From a virus (Duplodnaviria; Heunggongvirae; Uroviricota; Caudoviricetes), in the IMG/VR virus record IMGVR_UViG_2740892028_000002: a stretch of DNA of 17,526 nucleotides; one strand, written 5' to 3'. The notes below the pieces were generated by a model that saw nothing but the letters and a program-made list of their open reading frames with translations, had not been told where the DNA came from and did no database searches. Made by a program: the position numbers and the translations under genes. Shown piece after piece: positions 1 through 4,869 of this stretch. The first letter of the stretch is position 1. The number at the start of each line of letters is the position of its first letter.

Positions 1-61
1 AAACAATGATCTGGCAGCCTGAGTTCACAGATAAAACACTCTCCAGGAAACCCGGGGCGGT

Positions 62-355
62 TCAATACTTCTCAAGCGGAGTTTCGACAATTCTGTTTTC
101 AATAACACGAATATCGATATCTGGAGCCACGAAGCCCATAGCGCGTTGATAAAGACGATCACTAACTTCTGCATCAGCGACGGCCTTACCCTTTTTTATG
201 GACTCCGAAAACTTAGGATAATCAAGCTTCCACTTGTTAATAGTTGACTCACTGACTTCAAAGAAATCAGCAAGTTCTGCGTCTGTATAGCCCAGCAAGC
301 ACAGTTTGCGTGCCTGTTCGGCATACGCCTCTTGATACTTTGTTGGGCGCGCCAT
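62..355 (-). CDS. terminase small subunit, N-terminal HTH type
   Basis: 97-aa ORF; N-terminal RPTKY...AELADFFEVSESTINKW helix-turn-helix pattern resembles Sf6/P22-like small terminases; start ATG 2 nt after stop of upstream ORF with GGAG upstream; large subunit expected off-window below coordinate 62. Confidence 0.55.
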   Translation of the reverse strand: MARPTKYQEAYAEQARKLCLLGYTDAELADFFEVSESTINKWKLDYPKFSESIKKGKAVADAEVSDRLYQRAMGFVAPDIDIRVIENRIVETPLEKY

Positions 356-357
356 GT

Positions 358-600
358 TTATGCTCCGGTAGTGAACAGGTCTAACGCTTCCTTCGATTTA
401 CGCACCGCTTCAAATGTGCGGATCGTGATATCTGAATTAGCTCCGCCTGACTGGAAGTGAATTTTGAATAACTCAAGCTTCAGCTCGTCAGTGCCAATGA
501 ACTGAAATGCTTCTTCTGCGGCTGCGTTCTGGTTCATGACCAGTTTGTAAATCTCTAACTGGAATTTCTGTTCTTCAGTCATGGGAATAATCTCTGCCAT
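358..600 (-). CDS. hypothetical protein, translationally coupled to small terminase
   Basis: 80-aa ORF; GGAG 6 nt upstream of ATG at 600; stop TAA 2 nt before the terminase start. Confidence 0.5.
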   Translation of the reverse strand: MAEIIPMTEEQKFQLEIYKLVMNQNAAAEEAFQFIGTDELKLELFKIHFQSGGANSDITIRTFEAVRKSKEALDLFTTGA

Positions 601-894
601 TGTTGGCTCCGTTTATCCGTTAAAAGGGATATCAGTTAAGTTATCCCGTGTAGGGTATAAGCCATTGTCGAGACCACTCATTGAATGGTCTCTGCAATAA
701 CCGATGTCTTTCCATCAGTCCGCCACCACAAAGAATCTTTTTTGCCATAAGGCTGGAGGTTCATCTTTCAGTGGCTGCCAGTGTTATTTCCCCACTTACT
801 GGCTTGGGTTGTATCGCTGTACTGCCGTAACTGGTTACCCAGAATAAATTCCGGTTTCATTATCAAGCCCACCCGTAGATGGGCTTTGTAATGG

Positions 895-1152
895 CTACTT
901 CGCTTTTGCTTCCGCTCGCTTACGCCGGCGCTCTTCTTTCCTCTCGGCTTTTGCCATGTCCATGAATGCCTGCATGATCGAGTTCCGCATCATGTAGCTA
1001 ACAAAGTGATGATTGACACAGCCGTTGAGGCGCAGCTGCTCGCCAAACTCATCCACCGAGGCCAATGCTTCCATCATGCCCTTCTCGCCTTTCATGAACT
1101 CTGAGAAGTCGCGCCCCGCTCTGGAGGCGCATTCAATGACACGATCACTCAT
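895..1152 (-). CDS. hypothetical protein with basic C-terminal tail
   Basis: 85-aa ORF; ATGA overlap with upstream KilA-N ORF stop; lysine/arginine-rich tail KAERKEERRRKRAEAKAK. Confidence 0.45.
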   Translation of the reverse strand: MSDRVIECASRAGRDFSEFMKGEKGMMEALASVDEFGEQLRLNGCVNHHFVSYMMRNSIMQAFMDMAKAERKEERRRKRAEAKAK

Positions 1153-1646
1153 CCCGGAAGCCCGGGGATCGTAATCTGCAGCTGGTTAGCCAGGGAGTTA
1201 ATCTCAGCGACCAACACTGGCTTCGTATAGCGCCATGCCGCCAGCCCTTGTCCGCAGAAGCTCGCCATGTCTTTCTTCTGGTCAAACTCATGACATTTCA
1301 TGTTGAGCTGCGCACTTAAGCTGTTGCGATGCTGAAGTTCTCCAGTGAAGTAGTCATCGAGGACTTTATAGGCCGCGTACTTGAACCCGGGGTTTAACCA
1401 AGCCGCATAATCGTAAGCAACAAACTTCCCGCCATATGTTCCACCGTGTACACCGCGCTCAGTAAAAACCACAGATTCGTGGTTTTTCTCCAGCTCGGCT
1501 AAGAACTCTTTGGTCTGCTTGTTTCGCAGGTAGTGGTACGGAGATTCAGATTCACTTTTACCACTGGCTTTCCACATATCAGTGAGGCAGATCATTCCTG
1601 ATTCATCAACACGGATCGGTGTATTAAAAAGCGTGATTGCTTTCAT
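1149..1646 (-). CDS. KilA-N domain protein
   Basis: N-terminal motif ...VDESGMICLTDMWKASGK...YLRNKQTKEFLAEL typical of KilA-N DNA-binding domains; ORF track extends to a GTG at 1682 but ATG at 1646 (MKAITLF) is the more likely start. Confidence 0.6.
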   Translation of the reverse strand: MKAITLFNTPIRVDESGMICLTDMWKASGKSESESPYHYLRNKQTKEFLAELEKNHESVVFTERGVHGGTYGGKFVAYDYAAWLNPGFKYAAYKVLDDYFTGELQHRNSLSAQLNMKCHEFDQKKDMASFCGQGLAAWRYTKPVLVAEINSLANQLQITIPGLPG

Positions 1647-1788
1647 AGCGTCTTTACCTTTTAGAAAGTGAGCCTGTCTCACAGAAAAGCCGCCCGAGAG
1701 AGGTCGCCACCTATAACGGCATTTCTCAGGCTCGCTTACTGAAAGGCTCTCGTTAATATGCGCGTGAGATGCGCGTTTACTGCGGACA

Positions 1789-1812
1789 TAAAAAAGCCCC
1801 GCATCGCGAGGC
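1789..1812 (-). terminator. intrinsic terminator downstream of Rz
   Basis: Minus-strand RNA GCCUCGC-GAU-GCGGGGC hairpin (7 bp with one G-U) followed by UUUUUU, about 35 nt after Rz stop. Confidence 0.6.
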
Positions 1813-1844
1813 TCATTAAATGGACTTTGTGATTTGCAAAAAAA

Positions 1845-2312
1845 TTATTTCAGGCATTGCGTCCTGATGTATTCCTGAAGCGTTCTCAGTGCTGTTTGGT
1901 CGCGGATAATTCCGTCCCGGATACCGAGAACGTTTCGTCCAGCAACTGGAGAGAGTTCGACGGAGGCATCATTGCCCATGCCGGAGGCGCTGGAGGTTTC
2001 GGCTGAGGATGGCATAGGGCATTTTCCTTTGACGAGCACCCTACCACCATTATCAAGCTCGCGCCGAAGAGCATCATTTTCAGCTTTCGCATCAGCTAAC
2101 TCCTTCGTGTATTTAGCATCGAGTGCATCAGCAGTACGCTGGCGCTGCTGCATGTCAGTAATGGTGGCAGTCGCCTGCTTCAGCTCACTGCCTTTTTTAT
2201 CGCGCTGCTCTTTGTAGGCGATGGCGTTATCACGGTAATGATTAACAGCCCATGACAGACAGACGATGATGCAGATAACCAGAGCGGAGATAATCGCGGT
2301 GACTCTGCTCAT
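1845..2312 (-). CDS. Rz: i-spanin Rz
   Basis: 155-aa ORF with N-terminal TM segment, coiled-coil body and proline-rich segment; position after endolysin with ATGA overlap; closely lambda Rz-like. Confidence 0.9.
1886..2092 (-). CDS. Rz1: o-spanin Rz1 lipoprotein, embedded in +1 frame within Rz
   Basis: 68-aa ORF wholly inside Rz; signal peptide with lipobox (IMVVGC) and proline-rich [11 protein letters not shown] segment as in lambda Rz1. Confidence 0.8.
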
Positions 2313-2785
2313 ACCTCAATCTCTCTGACCGTTCCGCCTGCTTCTTTGAATTTTGCAATCAGGCTGTCAGCCTTATGCTCGAACTGACCATAACCAGCCC
2401 CCGGCAGTGAAGCCCAGATATTGCTGCAACGGTCGATAGCCTGACGAATATCACCGCGATCAATCATCGGCAAAGCGCCACGCTCCTTAATCTGCTGCAA
2501 TGCCACAGCGTCCTGGCTTTTCGGAGAGAAGTCTTTCAGGCCAAGCTGCTTACGGTAAGCATCCCACCAACGGGAAAGAAGCTGGTAACGTCCGGCTGCT
2601 GTTGATTTGAGTTTGGGGTTTAGCGTGACAAGTTTGCGAGGGTGATCGGAGTAATCAGTGAATAGCTCTCCTCCTACAATGACGTCATAACCATGATTTC
2701 TGGTTTTCTGACGTCCGTTATCAGTTCCCTCTGACCACGCCAGCATATCGAGGAACGCCTTACGTTGATTATTGATTTCCACCAT
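2309..2785 (-). CDS. R: endolysin, lytic transglycosylase
   Basis: 158-aa translation [53 protein letters not shown]... is essentially lambda R as I recall it. Confidence 0.95.
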
Positions 2786-3092
2786 CTTCTACTCCGGCTT
2801 TTTTAGCAGCGAAGCGTTTGATAAGCGAACCAATCGAGTCAGTACCGATGTAGCCGATGAACACGCTCGTTATATAAGCGAGATTGCTACTTAGTCCGGC
2901 GAAGTCGAGAAGGTCACGAATGAACCAGGCGATAATGGCGCACATCGTTGCGTCGATTACTGTTTTTGTAAACGCACCGCCATTATATCTGCCGCGAAGG
3001 TACGCCATTGCAAACGCAAGGATTGCCCCGATGCCTTGTTCCTTTGCCGCGAGAATGGCGGCTAACAGGTCATGTTTTTCTGGCATCTTCAT
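2769..3092 (-). CDS. S: holin / antiholin with dual-start motif
   Basis: 107-aa translation [39 protein letters not shown]... is essentially lambda S; Met1-Lys2-Met3 dual start; 3' end overlaps R start. Confidence 0.95.
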
Positions 3093-3630
3093 GTCTTACC
3101 CCCAATAAGGGGATTTGCTCTATTTAATTAGGAATAAGGTCGATTACTGATAGAACAAATCCAGGCTACTGTGTTTAGTAATCAGATTTGTTCGTGACCG
3201 ATATGCACGGGCAAAACGGCATGAGGTTGTTAGCGCAACCTCCTGCCACCCACTTTCACGAAGGTCATGTGTAGAAAGCCGCAGCATAACTATCACTGAT
3301 GAATTCAGGATAGCCAGTGGATACGGCTCAGTTTGGGTTGTGGCGGTCGGTGCTGAACTCCGACTTAATGACGATAGGCGTGTACCGACGCCTCGTTTTA
3401 CTTCCTCCGCTTTCACGGCTTCACCCTAGACCAGCTTTACGAAATCCTCGTAAACCTAACCGCGGCAGATATGACCGGCACGGTGTGCCATATCACGGAC
3501 CGGCGGGTGTCTCGTTCACCTGATTAACGCATCAGCCTGCGTATTCACCACAACGATAAGAGCACTGCGCGGCACCTTTCACCAATTCCGCGAGGTCTGC
3601 GGGTTCAATGCTCTTACCTGTTGTGCAAAC
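3093..3630 (-). promoter_or_regulatory. untranslated late-operon leader between tR' and S
   Basis: About 540 nt without a credible ORF; the S-proximal ~250 nt and the tR'-proximal segment (TGCACAACAGGTAAGAGCATTGA on minus strand) match lambda late-leader sequence as I recall it. Confidence 0.6.
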
Positions 3631-3671
3631 AAAAAAGCCACCGTTGCAACTTAAGAGTCACTAACGGCAGC
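3631..3671 (-). terminator. tR'-like intrinsic terminator
   Basis: Minus-strand RNA GCUGCCGUU...AACGGUGGC stem (9 bp, two G-U) followed by UUUUUUGUUUG; immediately followed by lambda-like post-tR' sequence. Confidence 0.6.
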
Positions 3672-3681
3672 TTACCCTCTA

Positions 3682-3711
3682 ATTATGGCTAAATGGCTAA
3701 TTGCATGTCAA
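3682..3711 (-). promoter_or_regulatory. late promoter pR' candidate overlapping 3' end of Q
   Basis: Minus strand TTGACA, 18-nt spacer, CATAAT; -35 lies inside the last Q codons and -10 directly follows the Q stop; predicted transcript of about 45 nt to tR'. Confidence 0.5.
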
Positions 3712-4207
3712 GGTTTTTAACAGCAACATGCTTAACTTTCTCAACACGTTTACGCATTTTGAAAGCATTTTGCATTGGTTGGTACAAAACAAATAATGAC
3801 GCTTTCAGGATGTCGTCAATTTCGTTTCTACAGGTTGCCAGTGAAGGTTTTCTCCATCCCTCGCCACCACGTCCACACATCTTGCGTGGCTTTGCAGTCG
3901 CGTGATAGTAGGATGCAATTGCTCGCTTAGATGAACCATGAGCGTAGTAGCTGAGGAGGATGCCAAAGGCTTTTTTGTCAATGTACATGACGGAATCGAC
4001 GACCTGAGAAATCAACATTCCATCATCATCATTGCACATTGGCCTTGTCATAACTCTTCCCGGCTCTACGCTCTCCATGAACTTCGCTATTACGCTGCTC
4101 ATGCGCTTTTCCAGACGACCTGAATAAACCCATGCGCCCCACAGTTCAAGCCAGCCATTCAGCCACTCGTGCTGCTCTTTGGTGAGGTTTAGTTCTCTTA
4201 TGCCCAC
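3689..4207 (-). CDS. Q: late-gene antitermination protein Q
   Basis: 172-aa ORF with N-terminal LELWGAWV motif of Q-family antiterminators; located between nin region and lysis genes; 10-nt overlap with NinI stop. Confidence 0.7.
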
Positions 4208-4869
4208 GCGCCTTCTCCCTGTACCTGAATCAATGTGAGGTTTCCGCAGAACACTGCGCCGGTATCGATATACATCTGGTTGGAAAACTTGAGTGGTTTC
4301 ACTGCTGGCGTATGACCAAAGATGAACGTGTCCGCTCCTTTGATTTCTTTTACGATCCCGTCTTGTGAGTTGCTGATTCGTTCGCGGTTCCAGATTACCT
4401 GCTGATGATCAACTGGCTTTCCAAACTCGTATTCGTCACAAGGATAATCGGCGTGGCAGATGACATATTTTTTACCTTTGCTCACCAGTTCAATGATTAA
4501 CGGAAGTTCATCTGCTTTATGGGCAAGAGCTTTAGCCAGAATTTCTTTGTCGTAATCGAGATTAAAGAACCAGCCACCGCCATTAAGCAGCCAGTGATTG
4601 ACGTTTCCACGCTCTGATAAGCCATCAATCATCATTTGCTCATGGTTTCCACGTACAGCTCGGAACCAGGGGAATGTGATTAATTCCAGACATTCGACGT
4701 TCTCTGTACCGCGATCGACCAAATCGCCAACCGAGATAAGCAGGTCTTTTTTGGTGTCGAATCCTATCGTCTCCAGTTTTTTCATCAGGTTCGTGTAGCA
4801 TCCGTGCAGATCGCCAACTACCCAAATATTTCGGTATTTGCTGCCATCAATTCTTTCGTAATAGCGCAT
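4198..4869 (-). CDS. ninI: serine/threonine protein phosphatase NinI
   Basis: [28 protein letters not shown]...GNHE metallophosphatase motifs, near identical to lambda PPase; ORF track start at 4944 is a 25-codon upstream extension, true start taken at MRYYE. Confidence 0.9.

Follow-up and report, generated by a model that had tools for sequence, protein, structure and literature searches.

A terminator and a conserved leader RNA with two predicted alternative folds at the head of a mobile KilA-N gene cassette of lambdoid phages

The stretch of DNA analysed here is a 17,526-nucleotide (nt) record of a Caudoviricetes virus, IMGVR_UViG_2740892028_000002, and is referred to below, at its full length, as the window. 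Its left part holds a small accessory cassette composed of an intrinsic terminator (T1), a structured mRNA leader, a gene for a KilA-N domain protein, a coupled gene for an 85-amino-acid (85-aa) protein and a 3′ hairpin (Table 1). Coordinates follow plus-strand numbering; the parts of the cassette lie on the minus strand, which carries all genes of the leftmost 4 kb. Read as transcribed, the order is Q, holin, endolysin, Rz, T1, the KilA-N open reading frame (ORF), the 85-aa ORF, a gap, a DUF2560 gene and a small-terminase-like ORF. An earlier reading of the same DNA (the first-pass annotation) had listed a KilA-N gene, an 85-aa gene coupled to it through ATGA, a terminator after Rz and a gap of ~290 bp, and all four are present. 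The anatomy of the cassette, its mobility, its domain content and its terminator-first architecture, as described below, are direct observations.

Table 1. Features of the locus in the window (plus-strand numbering)
Feature	Positions	Strand	Basis
Q gene	3689–4207	minus	
Holin gene	2769–3092	minus	
Endolysin gene	2309–2785	minus	
Rz gene, with Rz1 embedded within	1845–2312	minus	PF03245, E 4.6e-30
T1, intrinsic-terminator hairpin and T-run, 5′ boundary of the cassette	1788–1814	minus	consensus scan and fold
H2, small hairpin or palindrome (GCGC/GCGC) lying between T1 and the switch	1760–1774	minus	
Conserved structured mRNA leader, ATG included	1644–1781	minus	covariance models R1/R2
Fold 1, three-way junction P1/P2/P3	1695–1752	minus	
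Fold 2, helices S1 and S2	1657–1746	minus	
KilA-N + ORF11CD3 gene (hkbK of HK620), 165 aa	1149–1646	minus	Pfam
85-aa partner gene (hkbL of HK620)	895–1152	minus	phrog_875
3′ hairpin directly past the 85-aa stop codon; no T-run here	858–894	minus	
Remaining gap: conserved non-coding segment, small hairpins, weak terminator-like hairpin	601–857	minus	
DUF2560 gene	358–600	minus	
Small-terminase-like ORF, 97 aa	62–355	minus	

T1 consists of GAGCCTCGCGATGCGGGGCTT plus TTTTTTAT, with nine pairs, six of them G–C, and is the strongest terminator-like site in positions 1–3300. A hairpin with a T-run is found no more than 90 nt upstream in 93 of 100 distinct copies of the leader, and these hairpins have 65 different sequences, which indicates selection for a hairpin and T-run and not for a particular sequence. 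In alignments of the upstream regions, homology sets in with the terminator hairpin, also in copies that have a different upstream gene; with the copy found in a Klebsiella tail gene cluster, homology begins at T1. T1 is, to judge from these alignments, the conserved 5′ end of the cassette itself and apparently travels with its genes. The strong terminator previously noted behind Rz is present, but it does not belong to the lysis cassette. The small hairpin H2, which follows T1, is 100% paired in 48–93 distinct sequences. Stx-type leaders (e.g. L007, phage 1717 encoding Shiga toxin 2) have a compensatory change of one H2 pair from C–G to U–A followed by a U-run, giving two tandem terminator-like hairpins before the switch.

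The ~140 nt from T1 to the ATG are called the leader. The window contains one copy, recognised by two covariance models, R1 (130.5 bits, E 7e-28) and R2 (115.4 bits). Among leaders it is base pairing that is preserved, not sequence, and the pairing is of two kinds. In fold 1, a three-way junction, helix P1 joins CGAGAG (1747–1752) to CTCTCG (1695–1700), P2 occupies 1724–1744 and P3 occupies 1706–1720, where strand X (GCCGT) pairs with strand Y (GTGGC); the Shine–Dalgarno sequence is free. In fold 2, helix S1, of ~20 bp, joins 1727–1746 to 1657–1676, and its 3′ strand ends on the Shine–Dalgarno sequence AAAGG, which is paired; the inner helix S2 is formed by X (1715–1720) and strand Z (GGCGGC, 1689–1694). 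The folds are mutually exclusive, since one strand is common to P2 and S1, X is needed for both P3 and S2, and P1 would cross S1. A single pseudoknot uniting P1 and S1 was considered and rejected on geometry (a loop of 0–2 nt against a stem of 20 bp), a judgement made by reasoning and not by computation.

Energy calculations assign the two folds to different lengths of transcript. All eight representative leaders, taken from eight sequence types, have fold 2 as their minimum-energy structure at full length; when the transcript stops short of Z, fold 1 takes that place in eight of nine types. Of 77 distinct natural sequences, 63 adopt fold 1 when truncated in this way, compared with 116 of 1540 dinucleotide shuffles. 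For the window, fold 2 is calculated at −40.7 kcal/mol and fold 1 at −26.3 kcal/mol, with a probability of 0.00–0.13 that the Shine–Dalgarno sequence is unpaired at equilibrium.

Both folds are supported by covariation. For fold 2, 80.1% and 85.7% of alignment cells are paired (slid controls 31–57%; 0/500 shuffles) and 18 pairs have changed on both sides; for fold 1, in alignment A7, the value is 86.5% (slid controls 33–55%; 0/500 shuffles), again with 18 pairs changed on both sides, including all seven of P1 and all seven of P3. Covariation links strand X to both of its alternative partners, Y and Z. An alignment-free test compared duplexes of cognate strands with duplexes of strands from different leader types (non-cognate). 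Cognate duplexes are the more stable for P1 (−10.6 vs −5.5 kcal/mol), P3 (−7.1 vs −5.1), S2 (−9.5 vs −6.2) and S1 (−23.2 vs −14.7), and the observed energy sums were reached by only 0–1 of 20,000 permutations. G–U pairs are frequent and fit only the sense strand, that is, an RNA read from the gene strand. RNAalifold, applied to a plain MAFFT alignment, recovers only the small H2 hairpin because helix positions shift by one column from one leader type to another; the covariance-model alignments and the alignment-free tests resolve this. The comparisons show that two RNA folds are conserved and exclude each other; one of them is predicted to occlude the Shine–Dalgarno sequence. Rfam 15 gives no gene-strand match in 1640–1820 at E up to 1, and a scan of 1–4300 returned three chance-level matches only. 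No description of the leader was found in the searchable literature.

The leader is not confined to KilA-N genes of one kind. In further viral contigs, the covariance model places it before 19 protein clusters. These include KilA-N proteins with P63C, ORF11CD3 or other C-termini, Rha proteins with ORF11CD3 or other C-termini, the P22_AR_N + ORF11CD3 protein (‘ant-type’, encoded between R and Rz), ANT/KilAC and AntA proteins, HNH_3 proteins with or without AP2, T5orf172/MUG113 proteins and a TerB-like protein. Many of these domains belong to what has been described as the ‘Bro network’, for which HNH_3/AP2 was proposed as the activity that mobilises Bro genes (PMC10111431). The leader is also found before rha of phage P22 (103.7 bits with R1), at positions 1088–1233 of L178 (NC_002371), equivalent to record positions 39501–39646. 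The annotated start of P22 orf201 lies inside the leader, and the conserved ATG is situated 23 codons downstream, in frame, as Met24; given this ATG, the annotated start is probably too far upstream and the product would be a 178-aa Rha. L047 (996–1702) and L055 (448–1162) have a second leader copy, placed before a P22_AR_N + ORF11CD3 gene between endolysin and Rz, so one phage can carry two leader-gated Bro genes within 1.5 kb.

The cassette as a whole is widespread. Its block is 98.3% identical at the DNA level to hkbK/hkbL of phage HK620, and it is matched at least in part in 2743 of 5426 complete Escherichia coli genomes, with at least 80% of the block in 352; the arrangement is therefore not due to chance. 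The gene pair is an ordinary, common and already catalogued phage accessory pair with no assigned function. Blocks of homology were mapped against ten phages and prophages. The neighbours of the cassette are unrelated across these genomes: a P22-like packaging module in HK620; an HNH gene, a P27-type terminase, an HK97-type head and a tail sheath in the E. coli CX21 prophage; the HNH gene gp74 in HK97, HK022 and mEp234; another packaging module in the Stx phages, where the cassette is also present; and a tail gene cluster in Klebsiella and Raoultella phages. The view that this is a non-core mobile cassette placed between lysis and packaging genes is thus borne out, the same block adjoining very different packaging modules.

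The cassette is itself mosaic: breakpoints fall in two places, the leader and the start of the 85-aa gene, and in HK97-type phages the exchange is restricted to the KilA-N ORF (window positions 1137 to 1741). HK97, HK022 and mEp234 have terminator, leader, 85-aa gene and gap in common with the window, and the first gene (the HK97 gp73 type, 242 aa in HK97 and 242–251 aa among such copies) encodes KilA-N + P63C, with a KilA-N domain only 22% identical to that of the window. The first gene of the cassette is thus exchangeable. The same three phages keep a 5′ remnant of ~82 nt from the DUF2560 gene directly before HNH gp74 (~3055–3136 in L006, HK97, equivalent to window 519–600), which places a mosaic junction inside the DUF2560 gene.

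The leader of the KilA-N gene is interrupted in phage Dewey (L009, 2099–2783) and in L014 (2538–3245) by an HNH_3-AP2 gene that brings a leader copy of its own; a further HNH_3-AP2 insertion lies at L084 3–638. The insertion duplicates the 3′ part of the leader, its last ~50 nt, and looks like homing into the leader. Together with the breakpoints, the exchange of the KilA-N ORF alone and the proposed mobilising role of HNH_3/AP2, these insertions are what would be expected if the complementary segments were a recombination or homing target at the DNA level, driving gene swaps, and not an RNA switch. As a replacement for a function in RNA, this is very unlikely: compensatory changes keep the pairing and not the sequence, the abundant G–U pairs become A–C mismatches on the other strand, one helix ends exactly at the Shine–Dalgarno sequence, and X covaries with both Y and Z. 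The two roles are not exclusive and may coexist. A wider reading combines them and takes the terminator and leader as the shared front end of the whole enterobacterial Bro network (KilA-N, Rha, P22_AR_N, ANT and AntA proteins, and also free-standing HNH and T5orf172 proteins). The leader would then be a true switch sensing a signal, such as Q-linked polymerase speed or modification, integration host factor (IHF), RNase III, temperature or a ligand of the junction, and would double as a recombination or homing site for domain swaps and hopping between operons. This more ambitious proposal is put forward tentatively, as a possibility on the unlikely side.

Lambdoid phages are known to carry morons, which, in the definition derived from HK97 and HK022, are extra DNA with its own promoter and its own terminator, expressed from the repressed prophage. 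The cassette had been called a moron, and a classical moron, transcribed from its own promoter past T1 in the prophage, could benefit the lysogen, for example by superinfection exclusion or by abortive infection like that of BstA. The cassette is indeed mobile extra DNA between genes that are adjacent in related phages; terminator-type hairpins bracket it and it moves as a unit. BstA, a KilA-N defence protein, is reported in a preprint, and PADLOC-DB v2 gives a weak match of the KilA-N region to the defence candidate PDC-S22 (33 bits, E 6.8e-9). The match to QatB is at chance level, and no named defence system, BstA included, was matched by the cassette proteins in the same database. A moron in the strict sense finds no support in the promoter scan, which covered the sigma-70 type only and detected no such promoter on the minus strand of 1–3300. 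In the upstream and leader alignments, no −10/−35 elements are conserved across leader types, the positions of putative ones vary, and inspection of the leader by eye for sigma-70 hexamers and an IHF consensus showed nothing conserved. The interval from T1 to the ATG is taken by RNA structure predicted to occlude the Shine–Dalgarno sequence, and the cassette is always co-oriented with the late genes. A prophage-expressed moron is consequently an improbable account of the locus.

The KilA-N protein has 165 aa and is translated from an ATG preceded by an AAGG Shine–Dalgarno sequence. According to Pfam, the KilA-N domain (PF04383) occupies residues 7–101 (E 6.6e-16; 58.5 bits against a cut-off of 23.8) and an ORF11CD3 domain (PF10549) occupies residues 109–161 (E 2.4e-13; 50.5 bits against a cut-off of 25). 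The C-terminal half, which the first-pass annotation had not been able to recognise, is therefore a known domain of the Bro network, common to hkbK, to P22 Rha and to the ant-type protein encoded between R and Rz in relatives. Phage_pRha (PF09669) was not matched by Pfam, KilA-N filling the N-terminus; judged by its domains, the protein occupies the same slot as Rha, yet appears to stand outside the Rha family. Neither ANT/KilAC (PF03374) nor P22_AR domains were found in it at E up to 0.01 in Pfam, and PHROG ‘anti-repressor’ families gave weak matches (E 3e-4 to 6e-4). Protein P0148 is 97% identical to the KilA-N protein over 77% of its length and carries Phage_pRha + ORF11CD3, which suggests a recent N-terminal domain swap onto a near-identical C-terminal region.

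The AlphaFold (AF) model of the KilA-N protein has a predicted local distance difference test (pLDDT) score of 84.9; in it, a KilA-N α/β fold leads into one long helix, residues 86–156. Residues 1–85 are modelled as β-β-α-α-α-β-β-α, an APSES-like fold, and the ORF11CD3 domain is modelled as a single long helix. The best Foldseek matches of the model are the APSES DNA-binding domain of Mbp1, DdrC and Bqt4; the matches are weak (E 0.06–0.6), but these proteins are the relatives to be expected. PDB sequence searches with both cassette proteins gave chance-level matches only. We infer that the cassette encodes a DNA-binding, Rha- or antirepressor-like regulator that is made late.

The start of the 85-aa ORF overlaps the stop of the KilA-N ORF as ATGA (plus strand TCAT, 1149–1152). 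Its product ends in KAERKEERRRKRAEAKAK, a basic tail, matches phrog_875 (PHROG 875, function unassigned) and has no Pfam family. The AF model (pLDDT 93.8) comprises three helices and the basic tail; a Foldseek search against the PDB retrieved only generic helical bundles and designed proteins, at E of at least 1.7. The family is very narrow, with 21 representatives among 1.84 billion proteins, and is enterobacterial wherever the source names the organism. Four residues, C8, C45, H48 and H49, at first appeared invariant and were considered as a zinc site; the idea was dropped because the divergent homologue P0122 lacks C8 and H49. In every complete locus examined, the 85-aa gene lies directly 3′ of a KilA-N or Rha gene. 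A divergent homologue is encoded behind a Rha gene in an immI-like region with Arc and Ant genes, so the 85-aa protein would be a partner of Bro-network proteins in general.

A tightly coupled pair of this kind could also be a toxin and its neutraliser. The KilA protein of phage P1 is lethal to the host, and the window protein is distantly similar to it, with 30% identity over ~117 residues (11–127). If the KilA-N protein were toxic in the same way and the 85-aa protein neutralised or chaperoned it, the terminator and leader would serve to minimise the dose of toxin; the ATGA overlap, the occurrence of the 85-aa protein only beside KilA-N or Rha genes and the very tight translational repression predicted for the leader would all suit such a pair. 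Past residue 127 of the window protein, no similarity to P1 KilA was detected, and the context of kilA, in the lytic replicon region of P1, differs. Among Bro-network genes that carry the leader, many lack an 85-aa partner, P22 rha being one of them. Scans of Pfam, PADLOC and NCBIfam matched no toxin or antitoxin family, and the NCBIfam scan gave no families for the cassette proteins. The toxin pair is accordingly regarded as unlikely.

Behind the 85-aa gene, 294 bp (601–894) without a convincing ORF separate it from the DUF2560 gene. The gap of ~290 bp noted earlier is thus real in length, but it is not empty cargo space, since it contains the 3′ hairpin and a conserved non-coding segment that also follows P22 rha. 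The core of the 3′ hairpin follows the 85-aa gene in nearly all copies. In copies of the Klebsiella type, it is a canonical terminator, GAGCCCACTACGGTGGGC then TTTTTTATT; in copies of the E. coli type, the window included, it has lost the T-run. The non-coding segment, ~190 nt at about 695–857, is flanked by GATAATG and GACAATG, and small hairpins lie at 839–854 and 670–692. Taken as 695–860, the segment is found in 159 phage records, also behind rha in P22, and is missing from most Stx-type copies. Tiny ORFs have been annotated in phage Dewey within the equivalent of 695–857, but they are unconvincing. A weak terminator-like hairpin, GGGATAACTTAACTGATATCCC + TTTTAA (620–647), stands directly before the Shine–Dalgarno sequence of the DUF2560 gene (P22 Orf80) and is kept even where the downstream gene differs. 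The 97-aa helix-turn-helix ORF that follows DUF2560 covers only positions 132–230 of the 319-position PHROG small-terminase profile; it ends at position 62, close to the edge of the window, and may be a short small-terminase variant or a fragment.

Among characterised phages, the nearest parallel is rha of P22 (orf201) and φ80, which occupies the same position, between Rz and orf80/gene 3. P22 shares with the window the structured leader, the C-terminal ORF11CD3 domain and the non-coding segment behind the gene; its downstream Orf80 is a DUF2560 protein 96% identical to that of the window. It differs in the N-terminus of the protein, where P22 Rha has Phage_pRha and the window protein has KilA-N instead, and in having no 85-aa partner gene. 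On the strength of these sequence relationships, the cassette is probably the positional counterpart of P22 rha. The Rha phenotype, described by Henthorn and Friedman in 1995 (cited in PMC8951638), is reportedly an inhibition of phage growth in IHF-mutant hosts. No function is assigned to the corresponding genes in the HK620 and HK97 records.

Leaders that control translation by alternative or delayed folding are known from lambda cIII mRNA, hok mRNA and the maturation gene of phage MS2. The leader of the cassette resembles them in its two exclusive structures, one burying the Shine–Dalgarno sequence, and in the less stable fold formed by the 5′ part alone, features that are predicted for the window; it differs in having no Rfam or sequence relationship to them. 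Bro-network genes held down by RNA, through termination or translational occlusion, include those governed by P1 c4 (icd-ant), P22 sar (ant) and P4 CI RNA (kil/eta), the last of which, with its terminator read-through for kil/eta, is summarised in PMC10111431. These systems use trans-acting antisense or immunity RNAs, whereas no antisense partner was seen at the window leader and no c4-, sar- or CI-type family was among the Rfam matches at E up to 1 in 1–4300.

The cassette also lies in a late-operon context. The Q gene is ~1.9 kb upstream, and in the homologous region of HK620, 94% identical, pR′, qut and a late terminator are annotated. The interpretation we favour, and hold to be rather probable, is that of a portable accessory cassette of enterobacterial lambdoid phages, made up of T1, the ~140-nt bistable leader, hkbK, the coupled hkbL and the 3′ hairpin, which is expressed late, co-oriented with the genes of a Q-dependent operon, and regulated as follows. 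T1 would be passed only by terminator-resistant, Q-modified RNA polymerase, allowing late expression and none from stray transcription in the lysogen. The nascent leader would fold first as the three-way junction, with the Shine–Dalgarno sequence open, and would then relax to the long helix, ~14 kcal/mol more stable, burying it. Translation of the KilA-N protein, and through coupling that of its partner, would be limited to a brief window or to the action of some factor, as might suit a DNA-binding, Rha- or antirepressor-like regulator needed at low dose.

Several considerations weigh against this interpretation. Read-through of T1 by Q-modified polymerase is argued by analogy with lambda; the fold that would permit translation in vivo is suggested by predicted folding, and the putative roles of both proteins by their sequence families. 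A non-canonical or activator-dependent promoter may lie between T1 and the leader. The presence of the leader before unrelated proteins, such as HNH endonucleases, argues against autoregulation, and control by the encoded protein is therefore unlikely. As for the pairing statistics, each covariance-model alignment was fitted to the very fold whose pairs it was used to count; the sequences share ancestry, and the shuffle counts are neither probabilities nor phylogeny-aware. Taken as a whole, the leader gives a weak thermodynamic signal (z = −1.88), and seven of 200 shuffles fold equally well.

The leader, not the genes, is the interesting part of the locus. The unit of terminator and bistable leader appears to be an undescribed family of cis-regulatory RNA, present in classic model phages. 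Genes of the Bro network, such as those of KilA-N, Rha, Ant and their relatives, are among the commonest unexplained genes of temperate phages, and the cassette block is matched at least partly in about half of the complete E. coli genomes. If the terminator and leader gate expression as proposed, this would explain how potentially harmful DNA-binding proteins are tolerated in late operons and would provide a handle on the old rha phenotype of P22 and φ80. It would also correct annotations of start codons, such as that of P22 orf201, and add a testable RNA family in P22, HK97, HK620 and the Stx phages. A common conserved 5′ unit would, in addition, suggest why the genes of the Bro network shuffle so freely.

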